Positions 12,879 through 18,669 of a stretch of 64,000 bases of DNA are shown one piece after another (positions within the stretch are counted from its first letter, which is position 1; every line of letters begins with the position of its first letter). The notes beneath the pieces were generated by a model that was given only the letters and a program-made list of their open reading frames with translations, ran no database searches and was not told where the DNA came from. The position numbers and the translations under genes were made by a program. Origin of the DNA: an uncultured bacterium (lineage in GTDB: Bacteria > Chlamydiota > Chlamydiia > Chlamydiales > VFKH01); the NCBI GenBank assembly GCA_964630595.1, contig CAZVVT010000002.1, positions 1,609 to 65,608 of the forward strand. Direction: 5' to 3'.

Positions 12879-13472
12879 ATGCATTCTTTTGGGTTACTGC
12901 AAATTGCACTTACTCTCTTTCTGATCATGGATGCTTTTGGCAACGTGCCCTTTTACTTGGCCCTGCTCAAAGATTTTCCGGAGCGCCGCCGTCGCCGCAT
13001 CATCTTGCGCGAGATGTTGATTGCTCTTGCCGTCATCTTTATCTTTGCCTACCTGGGCAACACCTTCCTGAATTTCATCCACGTCAATCCCGCCGCTGTT
13101 GGTATGACAGGCGGTCTGATCCTCTTCATCATCTCTCTGCAGTTGATCTTCCCCAAAAAAGCTGAAGAGCCCAAGCCAAAAGCCCTTCTCGAACCCTTTG
13201 TCGTTCCCCTCGCCGTTCCCTTAGTGGCCGGCCCAGGGATCTTGGGTTCCGTGATGGTCTATGCAGCGCAATTGAACAGCATGAACACCCTCAGCTTAGC
13301 GATTCTCCTCGCCTGGGTCCCCTCTCTTATTGTCCTGCTCTCCTCCACACTTTTGCAGCGCCTGCTGGGCAAGAACATTCTCATGGGCATCGAACGCCTC
13401 ATGGGCTTCGTCATGACCCTCTTCGCCGTCAACCTCTTCCTCGATGGCCTCCGCTCCTACATTCAGAACTAG
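12879..13472 (+). CDS. marC: MarC/UPF0056 family integral membrane protein (tandem paralog)
   Basis: 197 aa, collinear with the upstream copy (LAVPLVAGPGILGS). The intergenic gap is 3 nt. Confidence 0.8.
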   Translation: MHSFGLLQIALTLFLIMDAFGNVPFYLALLKDFPERRRRRIILREMLIALAVIFIFAYLGNTFLNFIHVNPAAVGMTGGLILFIISLQLIFPKKAEEPKPKALLEPFVVPLAVPLVAGPGILGSVMVYAAQLNSMNTLSLAILLAWVPSLIVLLSSTLLQRLLGKNILMGIERLMGFVMTLFAVNLFLDGLRSYIQN

Positions 13473-14181
13473 GCTAATCGTTGCCTATGATGGCACGGAC
13501 TTTTTCGGGTGGCAGAAGACAAAAGAGGGCCCCTCTATTGAAGAATCTTTGGAGGTTGCCCTCGCTCATGTGCTCCAAGAGCCGGTCACTTTAGAAGCGG
13601 CCAGCCGCACCGATCGCGGCGTGCATGCTCGTGGGCAAGTAGTCTGCTTTACCGCCTCCAAAACAGCCTCTGCGCGTGCCATCAATAGTCAGCTGCCTCC
13701 TACCATCCGCGTTCTCGACTCGCTCCTCTGCCCCCTCGACTTCCACCCCACCCTCCACGTGCGCTCTAAAGAGTACCGCTACACCATCACCATGGGACCG
13801 GTACAGCCCGCCCATCAGCGACTCACCTCTTGGCACGTCCCCTACGAACTGGATCTGCCTCTCATGAAAAAGTGCTGCCAGGCCCTTATTGGCACGCGCG
13901 ACTTTGCCGGTTTCTGCAACACCAAAGAAAACGAAAGCTACGACAGCACGATTCGGACCCTCTTTCATTTCGATCTCGAACCAATCGGGGTCCATCAGGT
14001 AGAATGGAGGGTCGTTGCCGACCACTTTCTCTACAAAATGGCACGGAATTTGGTGGGCACAACAACATGGATTGGATGCGGAAAACTGGGGACGGAGGCT
14101 CTTGCCGCAACAGATCGCACGCGTACGGGCGTTACTGCACCGGCATGTGGGCTGATCCTGCACCAAGTAAACTATGAATGA
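13444..14181 (+). CDS. truA: tRNA pseudouridine(38-40) synthase
   Basis: VAYDGTDFFGWQ and the catalytic-Asp motif ASRTDRGVHARGQVV. 245 aa. Confidence 0.92.
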   Translation: MASAPTFRTRLIVAYDGTDFFGWQKTKEGPSIEESLEVALAHVLQEPVTLEAASRTDRGVHARGQVVCFTASKTASARAINSQLPPTIRVLDSLLCPLDFHPTLHVRSKEYRYTITMGPVQPAHQRLTSWHVPYELDLPLMKKCCQALIGTRDFAGFCNTKENESYDSTIRTLFHFDLEPIGVHQVEWRVVADHFLYKMARNLVGTTTWIGCGKLGTEALAATDRTRTGVTAPACGLILHQVNYE

Positions 14182-15019
14182 CCGGAATCGCCCCTGCTTT
14201 TGCGGCAGCGGAAAAAAGTTTAAGCACTGCCACGGAAAAGAGTTCGACCACTATTGGCGCAACTGGCACATCCTGCTCAAAACGCCCGAGCAGATTGCCG
14301 GCATTCGCAAAGCGTGCCAAACTGCTGCCCACATCCTCGACGAAACCTGCAAGCGCGCCAAAGAGGGCGTCACCACAGACGAGCTCAACGACTTTGCCCA
14401 CGACCTCCACCGCCAGCTGGGCGCTAAACCCGCCCCTCTTGGCTATGGAGATCCGCCCTACCCCAAAAGCATCTGTACCTCTCTCAATGATGTTGTCTGC
14501 CATGGCATACCCGACGCTACCCCCTTGCGCGATGGGGACATCCTCAATATCGATGTTACAGCGATTGTCGATGGGTACTATGGCGATTGCAGCCGCATGG
14601 TTTCGATTGGCAACATCTCTGCAGAAAAGGCGCTTGTAATCAAGGCCGCCCACGGCTCCTTGCTGGCCGCCATCGATATTCTACGCCCCGGCATTCCTCT
14701 CAATGCCATCGGCGAGGCGATCGAAGCCTATGCCATCCCCTTAGGCTGCTCGGTCGTTCACCAATTCGTCGGTCACGGTGTGGGAGTGCTCTTTCATGAA
14801 GAGCCGCAGATTTTCCACAACCGCAACCGTTGCACGACCCCTCTTGCCGCTGGTATGACCTTCACTATCGAGCCTATGATCAATGCAGGCCTTGCCGAAG
14901 CCCAAATCGACTCTCACGATCGTTGGACCGCCCGCACCATCGACGGCAAAGCTAGTGCTCAATGGGAACACACCATTCTCATCACGGAGACGGGACACGA
15001 AATCTTAACAATCGCATAA
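14174..15019 (+). CDS. map: Methionine aminopeptidase type I with N-terminal SEC-C-like zinc motif
   Basis: CFCGSGKKFKHCHG, followed by the MAP core with metal-ligand regions DILNIDV, DGYYGD, GHGVG and WEHT. Confidence 0.93.
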   Translation: MNDRNRPCFCGSGKKFKHCHGKEFDHYWRNWHILLKTPEQIAGIRKACQTAAHILDETCKRAKEGVTTDELNDFAHDLHRQLGAKPAPLGYGDPPYPKSICTSLNDVVCHGIPDATPLRDGDILNIDVTAIVDGYYGDCSRMVSIGNISAEKALVIKAAHGSLLAAIDILRPGIPLNAIGEAIEAYAIPLGCSVVHQFVGHGVGVLFHEEPQIFHNRNRCTTPLAAGMTFTIEPMINAGLAEAQIDSHDRWTARTIDGKASAQWEHTILITETGHEILTIA

Positions 15020-15061: not shown

Positions 15062-17848
15062 ATGCTAAAGCGCCTCTTTTTTCTCTCCCTCCTTTCGGCA
15101 GCGCTCGCCGCCGAGCCTACACTTCTTACGCAGCATGAGTCGGACGGCACGCATAAATTGCGTTTCGACGGCTTTGCGCCGGGGATGCGTTTTCGCCTTA
15201 TCCAGCAAACGATGACGGGTGAAGAGGCCTACTTGGGCTGGGTTAAAGAAGATGACAGTGGTCAGCTCTGTTTTTGCGTTGATGGGCAAGAAATTCCTCT
15301 ACACAAAGTCTCTTTTTCACCAACGGGATTCGCTTTCGGTGAAAAAGTGACCTATATCGCCATCGCCAAAGATCGCACTTATGAAATTGCCCATACCTTT
15401 GTGCCCCGCCCTCTTTCCGCCCAAAACTCCCTCGAAGAGCGCATCGAACTGCAGCAGCTGAATCCAAACGGTAAAGTATGGCAACTTAAAGGCAGCGGTT
15501 TTGACGCAGGGAAAAGCGTTATCTACGATGCTGTAACCACCACAGAGACCTTTGCCGGCACAGTTGTCACCGACGCATCAGGCTGTTTTGAAAAGCAGTT
15601 TGTACCAACCAACTCCACCCTTCCCTTTGGTTGGACACGGATCACGGTGGACTCTGGTCGTGGTAGCGCCTTCACGCTGAGCTACCCTTGGGGCGAAGAA
15701 GCGGTTGTGGAAGCCAGCAAAAAAGCCAAAGCACTCGAACGCCCCGCGAAACCTCTCCAATCACAACTCGTATCCGGCGAACACAAGCTTGTGATTCCCG
15801 TATTCAGTGATTCCATTGAAACCAGGGCTGCTCCTCAAAAACAGGCGACCGTGGCTCCGCAACCCAAAACAGCCGCTCCTTCCATCAGAGAAGCGTTGTC
15901 AGCTCGCCCACAAACCGCCTCACAGCAATCCTCTCCCCTTCTTGTTGCCGCTCCCCTTCCTCCTACTACCTTCACACCAGCCCCCAAAGGCTCTCCCGCA
16001 CCCGACGCCACACGCCTTATCAGGCAAAGCGCGCATCAAGAATCCATGCGCTTACAACAAGAAAAGACCCGCCAAGACCTACTACGCTCACAGCAAGCAA
16101 GGGCACATCAAGCCCTACTACGCTTCCAACAAGCAAAGGCTCGCCAAGAACTGCTGCGCTCACAGCAAGCAAAGGCAGCGGCTCGTCAAAAACAAGCGCT
16201 TGCCCAAAAACAAGCCTCACAGCAACGCGCAAAGCCCATTCAAGCTTCTCAGCAATGGAAGATGATGGTTGCTGCACCCAAAGCAGCTGCCCCCGCACAA
16301 GCTCCTAAACCCAACCATCCAAGCGCTATCGATTTAGCTCTAAAGAGCGCCGCAAAAGAGCGTGCTCAAACTGCACGTCCTGCAGCTGCCCCCAAAGCAG
16401 CCGCCCCCGCACAAGCTCCTAGAGCAGTAGCTCCTGCACAAGCTCCTAAACCCAATCACCCAAGTGCTATCGACCTCGCATTGAAGAGCGCCGCAAAAGA
16501 GCGCACGCAAGCTGCGCGCCCTGCAGCTGCCCCCGCACAAACTCCTAAAGCAGCAGCTCCTGCACAAGCTCCTAAACCCAACCATCCAAGTGCTATCGAC
16601 CTCGCATTGAAGAGCGCCGCAAAAGAGCGCACGCAAGCTGCGCGCCCTGCAGCTGCCCCCGCACAAACTCCTAAAGCAGCAGCTCCTGCACAAGCTCCTA
16701 AACCCAACCATCCAAGCGCTATCGACCTCGCATTAAAGAGCGCTGCAAAAGAGCGCACGCAAGCTGCACGCCCTGCAGCTGCCCCCAAAGCAGCCGCCCC
16801 CGCACAAGCTCCTAGAGCAGTAGCTCCCGCACAGGCTCCTAAACCCAACCAGCCAAGCGCTATCGACCTCGCATTGAAGAGCGCCGCAAAAGAGCGTGCT
16901 CAAGCTGCACGTCCTGCAGCTGCTCCTAAACCAGTTACCCCTGTCGCACAAGCCCCCAAAGCAGCCGCCCCCGCACAAGCTCCTAGAGCAGTAGCTCCCG
17001 CACAGGCTCCTAAACCCAACCAGCCAAGCGCTATCGACCTCGCATTGAAGAGCGCCGCAAAAGAGCGTGCTCAAGCTGCACGTCCTGCAGCTGCTCCTAA
17101 ACCAGTTACCCCTGTCGCACAAGCCCCCAACAAAGCAGCCGCCCCCGCACAAGCTCCTAGAGCAGTAGCTCCTGCACAGGCTCCTAAACCCAACCATCCA
17201 AGTGCTATTGACCTCGCATTGAAGAGCGCCGCAAAAGAGCGTGCAGCGAAACCTGTTCAACAGGCGAAAGCGGCTCCGGTAGCTCCAAAAACTGTAGCAA
17301 CTCCAGCTCCTAAGAAAGAACTTAACAGCGCTGTGGACTTGATCTTTGGTGATTCTGATAGCGCAGCCTTTGCCAAAGGCAGAGCACCTACTCCAGACAA
17401 TGAACCAGTGGCCCGAAAAGTACAGACTGCGCCAGCTCCTAAAGTTGCGCCAACCTCCAAGGCTGCAGCAACTCCCAAAGCTGTACAAGCCCCTAAAGTT
17501 GTTCCACAATCCCCTAATGCTATCGACCTCGCATTAAAGAGCGCGGCCAACGAATCTAAAGCTTCCGGCAAAAAGGCGGCAAGACGGGCAGAGCCTACAA
17601 AAGCAGCTCCTCCTGCACTCATCGAAAGGAAGGCTGACGCGATAAGCGAAGCACAAGCCCAGGATATAGCCCGCAAGAAGGCCGTAGAGGCATTAAAGGC
17701 CGAAACGGCGGCACGCGTGGCCAAAGCGCGCGAACTGACAGGAAGAGCGCCGCCTGCACAAAAAGCAGATACCGGTGCTTCCCAAAAGGTTGTCGGTCCT
17801 AATGCCATTGATATCGCACTAGGCCGAGTCCCTACAGCAAAGCGCTAA
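15062..17848 (+). CDS. Secreted/envelope Ala-Pro-Gln-Lys-rich tandem-repeat protein
   Basis: 928 aa. Signal peptide MLKRLFFLSLLSAALAA, a ~220-aa beta-rich N-terminal region, a Gln-rich LLRSQQA repeat block, then 7 near-identical plus 3 degenerate copies of a PSAIDLALKSAAKER-centred unit. No known domain recognised. Confidence 0.75.
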   Translation: MLKRLFFLSLLSAALAAEPTLLTQHESDGTHKLRFDGFAPGMRFRLIQQTMTGEEAYLGWVKEDDSGQLCFCVDGQEIPLHKVSFSPTGFAFGEKVTYIAIAKDRTYEIAHTFVPRPLSAQNSLEERIELQQLNPNGKVWQLKGSGFDAGKSVIYDAVTTTETFAGTVVTDASGCFEKQFVPTNSTLPFGWTRITVDSGRGSAFTLSYPWGEEAVVEASKKAKALERPAKPLQSQLVSGEHKLVIPVFSDSIETRAAPQKQATVAPQPKTAAPSIREALSARPQTASQQSSPLLVAAPLPPTTFTPAPKGSPAPDATRLIRQSAHQESMRLQQEKTRQDLLRSQQARAHQALLRFQQAKARQELLRSQQAKAAARQKQALAQKQASQQRAKPIQASQQWKMMVAAPKAAAPAQAPKPNHPSAIDLALKSAAKERAQTARPAAAPKAAAPAQAPRAVAPAQAPKPNHPSAIDLALKSAAKERTQAARPAAAPAQTPKAAAPAQAPKPNHPSAIDLALKSAAKERTQAARPAAAPAQTPKAAAPAQAPKPNHPSAIDLALKSAAKERTQAARPAAAPKAAAPAQAPRAVAPAQAPKPNQPSAIDLALKSAAKERAQAARPAAAPKPVTPVAQAPKAAAPAQAPRAVAPAQAPKPNQPSAIDLALKSAAKERAQAARPAAAPKPVTPVAQAPNKAAAPAQAPRAVAPAQAPKPNHPSAIDLALKSAAKERAAKPVQQAKAAPVAPKTVATPAPKKELNSAVDLIFGDSDSAAFAKGRAPTPDNEPVARKVQTAPAPKVAPTSKAAATPKAVQAPKVVPQSPNAIDLALKSAANESKASGKKAARRAEPTKAAPPALIERKADAISEAQAQDIARKKAVEALKAETAARVAKARELTGRAPPAQKADTGASQKVVGPNAIDIALGRVPTAKR
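16268..17245 (+). repeat. In-frame tandem repeat array, 7 units of 126-174 nt
   Basis: The AAA codon of the PKPN(H/Q)PSAIDLALKSAAKER core recurs at 16307, 16448, 16574, 16700, 16841, 17012 and 17186, giving spacings of 141, 126, 126, 141, 171 and 174 nt. The two 126-nt periods are copies of one unit, and the 171- and 174-nt periods are copies of a longer unit, with only scattered substitutions visible by eye. Confidence 0.95.
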
Positions 17849-18669
17849 TCTAGTTCGTCTTCCGGTTCGGGTTCGAAGTCTACAAGGGTCTTCGAGCGCT
17901 TGCCTGCAAGCAATCGCACGATAGAGAGCGTCCAGGCAACGAGGATATAGCCCCAGGTGACGACGGCAAAGAGGATCGCGAAGTAGTTCAGCACGCCGTA
18001 CAGCAGCCCTAAAGCGATCAGGACCGTAATAAAGACCAGGTTAAAGGAGCGCACGCGGATGTGGAGCGTTTTGACGCTGGGAAACTTCCAACGGCTGATC
18101 ATGAAATAGCCGAGAACAGCTAAGACCGCGCCTAAAATGGCAGCGCGGGTGACGGGCTGCAGAGCAGGTAATTCATCAGAGGCGAGCAGAAGGTTGGCCG
18201 ATACGGCCGCCAAGGCTGCTGCAGGGATAGGCAGGCCGGTGAAATTCTTCTTGTGCTCATGCATCAGCGCAGCACTCTCTTTGGCCTGGCTGTTTTTGAC
18301 ATTGAAGCGAACCAGACGAAGCACGCCGCAGACGGAAAAGAGCAGAGCCGCTGCAATCATGAAAAAAGAGAGGGTGGTGCCAGGGGCGGCCTTAATCGTG
18401 GTGATGACTAAAACAGCCGGAGCAACGCCAAAAGTGACGGCATCAGAGAGCGAATCAAACTGCACTCCAAACTCGCTCTCCGCATGAATAAAGCGCGCAA
18501 TGGCACCGTCTAAAACGTCAGCAATAGCGCCCACAATGAGAAGAATGCTCAAGACGTAAATGAGGTGAAAATTCACGTCCACCGCGGTGGCCATCTTGAA
18601 GACCACAAAGAGCCCACAAGCGAGCGCAAAAGCAGTGACCAAATTTGGGATGAGAAAGACCTTACGCAT
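17845..18669 (-). CDS. pssA: CDP-diacylglycerol--serine O-phosphatidyltransferase
   Basis: IPNLVTAFALACG start and the CDP-alcohol phosphatidyltransferase motif DGAIARFIHAESEFGVQFDSLSD. Multi-pass membrane protein. Confidence 0.85.
   Translation of the reverse strand: MRKVFLIPNLVTAFALACGLFVVFKMATAVDVNFHLIYVLSILLIVGAIADVLDGAIARFIHAESEFGVQFDSLSDAVTFGVAPAVLVITTIKAAPGTTLSFFMIAAALLFSVCGVLRLVRFNVKNSQAKESAALMHEHKKNFTGLPIPAAALAAVSANLLLASDELPALQPVTRAAILGAVLAVLGYFMISRWKFPSVKTLHIRVRSFNLVFITVLIALGLLYGVLNYFAILFAVVTWGYILVAWTLSIVRLLAGKRSKTLVDFEPEPEDELD

Follow-up and report, generated by a model that had tools for sequence, protein, structure and literature searches.

A predicted Sec-exported protein of an uncultured Chlamydiota bacterium, with a putative double beta-sandwich head and ten copies of a short conserved motif

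The 64,000-nt window analysed here (contig CAZVVT010000002.1 of an uncultured Chlamydiota bacterium) contains, at 15062-17848 on the forward strand, an open reading frame (ORF) of 928 amino acids (aa). It starts with the ATG at 15062, its stop codon lies within the 17848 end and the frame is open throughout the 928 codons; an earlier reading of the sequence, referred to here as the first-pass annotation, had given exactly the coordinates found in the ORF listing of the window. The ORF is a real gene, encoding a 'head plus string of beads' protein: a putative signal peptide and a folded head are followed by a Pro/Gln/Ser/Thr/Ala-rich linker, a Gln/Arg/Lys-rich segment, a tandem array of seven units and a basic tail (Table 1). 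The beads are ten copies of a short motif, seven in the array and three in the tail.

Tandem Repeats Finder (TRF), which the first-pass annotation had proposed as a check, recovered both the Gln-rich block and the main array, in three arrays that are the only tandem repeats scoring at least 80 in the window. The first, at 16049-16177 (period 36, 3.6 copies, 74% matches), corresponds to the block described earlier as three LLR(S/F)QQA(K/R)A units, and is built from a 12-aa (36-nt) repeat LLR(S/F)QQA(K/R)A(R/H)Q(E/A/D) in the Gln-rich segment. The other two lie at 16397-16923 (period 126, 4.1 copies, 91% matches, score 772) and 16781-17244 (period 171, 2.7 copies, 97% matches, score 873). Ten matches to the core A[IV]D[LI][AI][LF] lie in the protein, at aa 422, 469, 511, 553, 600, 657, 715, 757, 820 and 915, with start-to-start spacings of 141, 126, 126, 141, 171, 174, 126, 189 and 285 nt, the first six of which are exactly those first reported. 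The seven cores of the array start at nt 16325, 16466, 16592, 16718, 16859, 17030 and 17204. Each array unit combines a Pro/Ala-rich spacer made of 9-aa sub-blocks with an invariant APKPN(H/Q)PSAIDLALKSAAKER, giving the unit peptide form KPNHPSAIDLALKSAAKERAQAAR. The spacers differ by whole 9-aa sub-blocks, as expected from the sub-block shuffling proposed earlier, and the stretch GATTTAGCTCTAAAG is specific to unit 1 and CCAGCCAAGC to units 5 and 6. The seven units of the earlier consensus are all present, but unit 1 reads AQTARP and unit 7 is without the QAARPAAAP tail.

The three degenerate copies that had been noted beyond the array (copies 8-10, Table 1) are far above chance expectation: when the tail (aa 736-928) was shuffled, only 3 of 200,000 shuffles contained even one core match, against the three matches observed. 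The core motif is absent elsewhere in the six-frame translation of the window.

Comparison of the units at the DNA level separates recent from older copies. Over 126 nt, units 5 and 6 are without a mismatch and units 2 and 3 have four, whereas the remaining pairs within units 1-6 have 12-28 (14-28 for unit 1 versus units 2-6), and unit 7, whose 3' third has diverged, has 33-43 against the others. The description of neighbouring units as near-identical thus applies to units 5/6 and 2/3 and not to the remaining pairs. The proportions of synonymous (pS) and nonsynonymous (pN) differences were obtained for a block of 35 codons, APAQAPKPN(H/Q)PSAIDLALKSAAKER.Q.ARPAAAP. For unit 1 compared with units 2-6, the values are 0.33-0.52 (pS) and 0.039 (pN); for units 2-4 compared with units 5-6, they are 0.33-0.37 and 0.026. 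Within the 15-codon core PSAIDLALKSAAKER, the seven units have 10 variable nucleotide sites and no amino-acid changes. Synonymous sites make up ~23% of the core, so that the chance of this pattern under neutrality is ~0.23^10, a rough figure given the small number of sites and their partial dependence on one another.

High pS combined with low pN between units indicates that the peptide of the array unit is under purifying selection. Two recent duplications among older units of constant peptide argue against a wholly recent expansion and for a functional peptide. The first-pass proposal of recent expansion is therefore correct for the duplicates 5/6 and 2/3 and incorrect for the array as a whole, given the pS of unit 1. 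Its suggestion that the AIDLAL core is the functional unit is well borne out, the core being kept in the three diverged copies and showing solely synonymous change within the array.

The residues common to all ten copies are [P/N]-[S/N]-A-[I/V]-D-[L/I]-[A/I]-[L/F]. In the classical helix capping box, Ser or Asn occupies the N-cap position and Asp or Glu the N3 position, with Pro before. The [S/N]-x-x-D that follows Pro in the motif matches this box, and from the match we infer that each copy starts a short helix. In a scan of Joint Genome Institute (JGI) metagenome contigs with the degenerate DNA pattern A[IV]D[LIFM]A[LF]K[S..]AA, 39 single matches were found, approximately the chance number as estimated by hand. 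By eye these apparently lie in ordinary single-copy proteins (e.g. in IspH-like and aminotransferase-like contexts), and no arrays or Pro/Ala-rich ORFs were among them. Strings of the form A(I/V)D(L/I)AL(K) hence occur by chance in ordinary folded proteins, some of them probably at helix starts.

The protein is predicted to be exported by the Sec pathway with a cleavable type I signal. By inspection, the n-, h- and c-regions are MLKR, LFFLSLLSAALA and A-L-A followed by A, with small residues (A-x-A) at -3 and -1. The segment at aa 5-16, after which A-L-A and then A-E are read, is the sole hydrophobic segment in the protein. No lipobox is present, Cys being absent from aa 1-60, and no C-terminal anchor or sorting signal was recognised in the tail (aa 736-928). 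The Sec signal of the first-pass annotation is upheld both by this inspection (MLKRLFFLSLLSAALA followed by AEP) and by the relatives of the N-terminal module, which are exported proteins or lipoproteins.

Modelling of the head with AlphaFold2, using a 43-sequence alignment, gave two consecutive beta-sandwiches with a predicted local distance difference test score (pLDDT) of 89.1 and a predicted template modelling score (pTM) of 0.82. Confidence drops to pLDDT 49-69 beyond model residue ~210. The alignment was needed, as the single-sequence model reached a pLDDT of only 37. Foldseek searches of the PDB and BFVD with the head returned solely generic tandem immunoglobulin (Ig)/FN3/macroglobulin (MG)-type pairs, with low TM-scores of 0.2-0.29. 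In the models, then, the head clearly falls in the class of two tandem Ig-like beta-sandwiches, a fold class from which a specific function is not deducible. The region described earlier as beta-rich is in this way resolved into ~200 aa predicted to form two Ig-like sandwiches. BLASTP of domain 1 against domain 2 detected no internal duplication.

An exhaustive phmmer search with aa 18-260 found 53 proteins at E<1e-3 among 1.84 billion cluster representatives. The best non-self match has an E-value of 8e-9 at 20-25% identity, and the 52 other proteins span 8e-9 to 1e-3. Nearly all homologues are 216-300 aa long, and their alignment covers query aa ~30-215. In the family alignment (A2, 43 sequences), GF.PG, GE..Y.L.S.D, P.PIE and G.GF.P.E are conserved, and in the Y.WG that ends the module the W is invariant and the following G nearly so. 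An hmmsearch of the A2 profile against the protein gave E=1.3e-58 over aa ~25-223, a value inflated by the query being one of the 43 rows. Neither Pfam nor NCBIfam has a match in any family member tested, and the members are labelled 'hypothetical protein' in their source records (cluster look-ups). The first-pass annotation had recognised no domain; these matches indicate instead that the head is a member of a real, unannotated family of ~220-280-aa exported double beta-sandwich proteins without a Pfam or NCBIfam model. Two of the matches, P0005 (ACBP repeats) and P0028 (DUF7507/DUF11 repeats), were rejected as spurious multi-stretch matches. Acylphosphatase was likewise rejected as an identity for the head, its weak matches in beta-sandwich 1 (PDB E=0.0015, NCBIfam 0.014) lying far under the family cut-off.

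The head aligns along its whole length, at 20-25% identity, with members of this family (P0003-P0054), and in both cases the proteins are predicted to be exported. A lipobox occurs in 17 of 42 homologues and a signal peptide in most of the remainder; the 928-aa protein, in contrast to the many members with a lipobox, has a type I signal. Family members usually stop just past the WG, while a few continue into Sel1 or TPR repeats or have the module itself in two to three tandem copies (P0021, P0035, P0040, P0050, P0015, P0022). Fusion to TPR and Sel1 interaction scaffolds elsewhere fits a head that is combined with varied scaffolds. A Pro/Ala-rich repeat tail is found in none of the 53 family representatives. 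The mature chain of one homologue (P0044) begins with EPTL, as does that of the 928-aa protein. The genomic surroundings of two family members (L125, L126) were uninformative, a scan of genome contigs with the head sequence gave no match and no paralogue of the head is present in the window. The head is acidic (net charge -8, pI 5.0).

The part beyond the head is of a different character: its ~700 residues are strongly basic and all but free of aromatic side chains and Cys. In the array spacers a proline occurs every 2-5 residues, and from aa 404 to the C-terminus there are two aromatic residues and no Cys. Even at E<=10, Pfam had no match to the linker together with the Gln-rich region, to the array, to the tail or to one unit taken singly. 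Queries with the complete protein, its sub-regions, one unit and a motif profile likewise gave nothing significant in Pfam, NCBIfam or the PDB sequences. PDB sequence searches with the motif profile and with the tail were empty save for one insignificant match. A word-indexed protein search with the whole protein returned only the protein itself; with the N-terminal 236 aa or the C-terminal 229 aa it returned nothing and missed even the protein itself, making this a weak negative. A literature search on chlamydial Pro/Ala repeat proteins and on the sequencing runs described below found nothing relevant. Within reach of these searches, the repeat part appears to be an orphan.

Some side features of the array DNA were also seen. 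On its antisense strand, each unit has a terminator-like hairpin plus T-run at the KER(T/A)QAAR codons. These sites span 16361-17082 (-), e.g. 16645-16629, 16519-16503, 16771-16755, 17082-17066 and 16911-16895, and are positioned downstream of the convergent phosphatidyltransferase gene. The count of terminator-like sites is 23, compared with 9.1 ± 2.9 in shuffles. The antisense sites are probably a by-product of the repeat, and could also halt read-through antisense transcription. Long antisense ORFs (123-258 aa) lie across the array at 16340-17808 (-) and encode Cys/Arg/Leu/Ser-rich repeats without support; these ORFs (e.g. 16733-17509, -) were rejected as genes and considered by-products of the stop-poor repeat. 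The AT skew is 0.33 in 16001-18000.

Upstream of the gene lie those for DHDPS, asd, an aminotransferase, two MarC proteins, truA and methionine aminopeptidase (map), and downstream are the CDP-alcohol phosphatidyltransferase gene, nrdA, nrdB and YkuD; no tol, exb, protease, maturase or transporter genes were found near the ORF. map overlaps truA by 8 nt. The map product shares 55-60% identity with the enzymes of Chlamydiae, Chlamydiales and Anoxychlamydiales metagenome-assembled genomes (MAGs) in the genome contig scan, and among GTDB species representatives no genome nearer than this was found. The truA-map pair is kept in three related Chlamydiota MAG loci (L003, L005, L007), where the gene downstream differs, and tblastn detected no homologue of the ORF 3' of map in the related loci L002-L008. 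Since the loci of relatives are without a homologue downstream of map, the gene appears to be lineage-specific, set among housekeeping genes. Elsewhere in the window, a 626-aa ORF at 23259-25139 (+), with no Pfam match on record, has a J-domain-like FRALHPDKW (HPD) motif at its C-terminus and a duplicated Gly/Ala-rich segment (AEDRGSGGAAAGAG and AEGHGSGGAAAGAG); it may be an effector-like orphan.

Table 1. Features of the 928-aa protein gene and its immediate neighbours (coordinates in the window; aa numbering of the precursor)
Feature	Position	Strand	Basis or remarks
Sec-type (signal peptidase I) signal peptide, predicted, aa 1-16, MLKRLFFLSLLSAALA	15062..15109	+	Read from translation; predicted cleavage between ALA and AEP
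Beta-sandwich domain 1, predicted, aa ~20-117	15119..15412	+	AlphaFold2 pLDDT >90, family alignment; ends in family-conserved GE..Y..I..D....A...P.P(L/I)
Beta-sandwich domain 2, predicted, aa ~118-211	15413..15694	+	Starts G-S-G-F, ends Y-P-W-G (W210, G211); AlphaFold2, alignment, profile
Pro/Gln/Ser/Thr/Ala-rich linker, aa 212-328	15695..16045	+	Composition; pI 10.2 (aa 216-328); low model confidence
Gln/Arg/Lys-rich segment, aa 329-403	16046..16270	+	pI 12.0, net +13; TRF, repeat family, charge
Seven-unit tandem array, aa 404-735, units of 42-58 aa	16271..17266	+	TRF, sequence comparison; A 37%, P 17%, pI 11.4
Basic Ala/Lys/Pro-rich tail plus stop codon, aa 736-928	17267..17848	+	pI 10.3
Degenerate motif copy 8, NSAVDLIF, aa 755-762	17324..17347	+	Motif scan
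Degenerate motif copy 9, PNAIDLALKSAANES, aa 818-832 (plus next residue)	17513..17560	+	Motif scan; 86% DNA identity to array core
Degenerate motif copy 10, PNAIDIAL, aa 913-920	17798..17821	+	Motif scan; 8 residues before C-terminus
truA	13444-14181		Upstream of ORF
Methionine aminopeptidase (map)	14174-15019	+	Upstream; N-terminal SEC-C zinc-binding motif PF02810, E=6e-8
CDP-alcohol phosphatidyltransferase	17845-18669	-	Downstream, convergent; 4-nt overlap with ORF 3' end

The reading we favour, held tentatively and with rather more doubt than confidence, is that the protein is a Sec-exported scaffold in which a folded head is joined to ten copies of a docking motif for multivalent binding. 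Each motif copy would start a short alpha-helix, and the Pro/Ala-rich segments between them would act as extended spacers. The ten helices would each dock the same ligand and in this way bind it multivalently (avidity), and the head would provide a second, different contact, as an anchor or for target recognition. The number of units could be altered by unequal recombination between them, of which the two recent duplications would be the visible trace. The most likely site of such a scaffold would be the envelope or the outside of the cell, with periplasm, surface and host-facing compartment as candidate final locations.

Several points count against this reading. The structure models cover the head only, and the role of the tail is proposed from its sequence. 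The amphipathicity that the first-pass annotation had ascribed to the core is modest, with a hydrophobic moment (muH) of only about 0.25-0.39, and the I-x-L-x-L alternation would suit a beta-strand equally well. The selection figures use ~27 synonymous sites, and gene conversion between units complicates the divergence estimates. No orthologue with the repeat part was found in protein searches, in the loci of relatives or in the metagenome motif scan. Finally, the interior copy number of the array is that of the source contig, the only one on record to span it.

A more specific form of the scaffold reading, which we consider unlikely as it stands, is that the motif represents a docking element not described before, an N-capped helix of which a secreted chlamydial scaffold displays ten copies to bind a specific partner multivalently. 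Candidate partners would be a host (protist) protein, or the protein's own acidic head, in which case head-to-tail self-assembly could produce an extracellular or periplasmic mesh. The head would then represent a new, widespread and unannotated family of envelope domains.

The main rival, also unlikely in our view, is a charge-driven polyanion binder or adhesin, in which the basic tail binds peptidoglycan-associated polymers, lipopolysaccharide (LPS), host glycosaminoglycans or extracellular DNA and the helices are secondary. Mycobacterial HBHA and histone-H1-like Lys/Ala/Pro repeats act by polyanion binding, and the charge of the present protein is in keeping with such a role: the mature protein has a net charge of +61 and a pI of 10.3 (net +69 over aa 216-928), the pI of the array is 11.4 and that of the Gln-rich block 12.0, and the overall composition is A 24%, P 11% and K 9%. 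Charge alone, however, leaves unexplained the strict conservation, in 10 copies and in spite of synonymous divergence, of an uncharged hydrophobic core in which D is the only charged residue. The Lys density is also far under that of HBHA or Hc2-type repeats, and no family model was matched. Compared with the dense KxxA/PAKK-type Lys repeats of HBHA and histone-H1-like proteins, the composition here is only partly alike (K 9%, A 24-37%, P 11-17%). In the pneumococcal proteins PspA and PspC the proline-rich region has a conserved non-proline block, and HBHA has Lys/Ala/Pro repeats. The likeness lies in the PA(K)-rich extended repeats that these surface proteins use as spacers to span the wall or bind a ligand, in some cases with a conserved non-proline segment breaking them up. 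Those proteins, however, are Gram-positive or mycobacterial, are anchored otherwise and have no Ig-like head of the present family, and no homology to PspA/PspC or HBHA was found in Pfam, NCBIfam, PDB or protein sequence searches of the 928-aa protein.

It is improbable that the array is a polyprotein precursor, cut into many copies of a single active peptide of ~20-35 aa in the manner of multi-core peptide precursors and Kex2-processed repeat proteins. The identical peptide units between variable spacers, the selection on peptide rather than DNA and the basic residues (KER, AAR) that flank each core would all suit such processing. No protease, maturase or transporter gene is nearby, however, and in copies 8-10 nothing but the 8-aa core is retained, the putative cleavage sites beside it being absent. 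We also know of no polyprotein in a diderm bacterium that has a folded Ig-like head.

That the array is an assembly artefact, or a non-functional low-complexity expansion in a decaying orphan gene, seems quite improbable. Its exact repeats, one of 179 nt (16781/16952) and one of 131 nt (16460/16586), are beyond short-read resolution, and every short-read contig found ends at the array edges. These contigs come from the Logan assemblies of SRR12822863, SRR12808459, SRR12808457 and SRR9903538 and match the window at 100% identity. Their ends lie at 16324 on the 5' side and at 17212, 17215, 17529 or 17558 on the 3' side (L001, L082 and L084 for 16324 and 17212-17215, L083 for 17529, L085 for 17558), the innermost of them falling at the first and the last perfect core. 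The failure to find an orthologue of the repeat part would fit decay. Against this explanation, both edges of the array are independently confirmed at 100% identity in four sequencing runs, which appear from their sequence to carry the same strain. Moreover, the 928 codons are open, synonymous-biased differences between units are not made by an assembler and the diverged motif copies lie outside the DNA-level repeat. The array is nevertheless a case where the copy number in a MAG needs long reads before being trusted.

The first-pass annotation had compared the protein with TolA and TonB, and a periplasm-spanning spacer or energy transducer of this type would have in common with it an envelope location and a long extended region that is basic and rich in Pro or in Ala/Lys. 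This is very improbable. By inspection the signal is cleavable, in place of the uncleaved N-terminal anchor that contacts TolQ/TolR, and neither TolA domain III nor the TonB C-terminal domain (PF03544) was found in the whole protein with Pfam or NCBIfam at E<=1, in the tail with Pfam at E<=10 or in the PDB sequence search. Around the gene lie truA, map, CDP-alcohol phosphatidyltransferase and nrdAB in place of tolQR, exbBD, tolB or pal. The folded domain is at the opposite (N-terminal) end, proline would break any long helix and the contour length of the tail would, by a rough estimate, be several times the width of the periplasm. Of the resemblance only the Pro-rich spacer is left, and we keep 'extended envelope spacer' as a loose analogy.

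The least probable of the alternatives is a host-cytoskeleton effector of the WH2/Tarp type, which is suggested by the repeated short helix-like motifs and Pro-rich segments in a disordered region of a chlamydial protein, but is opposed by the WH2 Pfam model being unmatched at E<=10 on the array, tail and single unit, by the absence of LKK(T/V) or a hydrophobic follow-on (KSAAKER comes after the helix), by a hydrophobic pattern of PhixPhixPhi rather than PhiPhixxPhi and by the Sec signal, Tarp being a type III substrate without one. No sequence similarity between Tarp and the 928-aa protein was detected. Chlamydial Tarp is a disordered, proline-rich protein whose short helices bind actin monomers (PMC5792643, PMC2904776); the binding helix, of ~10 residues, is partly preformed within the disordered protein (PMC5792643), and Tarp orthologues carry one to several actin-binding copies plus a proline-rich region (PMC5792643, PMC2904776).

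Intracellular bacteria commonly have secreted orphan repeat proteins, and on present evidence a single one in one uncultured lineage is nothing unusual. If the proposed docking scaffold is correct, it would be a secreted bacterial protein with the architecture of the multivalent linear-motif scaffolds of eukaryotes, in a phylum that lives inside eukaryotic cells. It would also define a peptide of 8-20 aa that could be synthesised and used as bait, and would draw attention to a two-domain envelope module that is unannotated, is modelled with high confidence, recurs across metagenomes and is fused elsewhere to TPR and Sel1 repeats.

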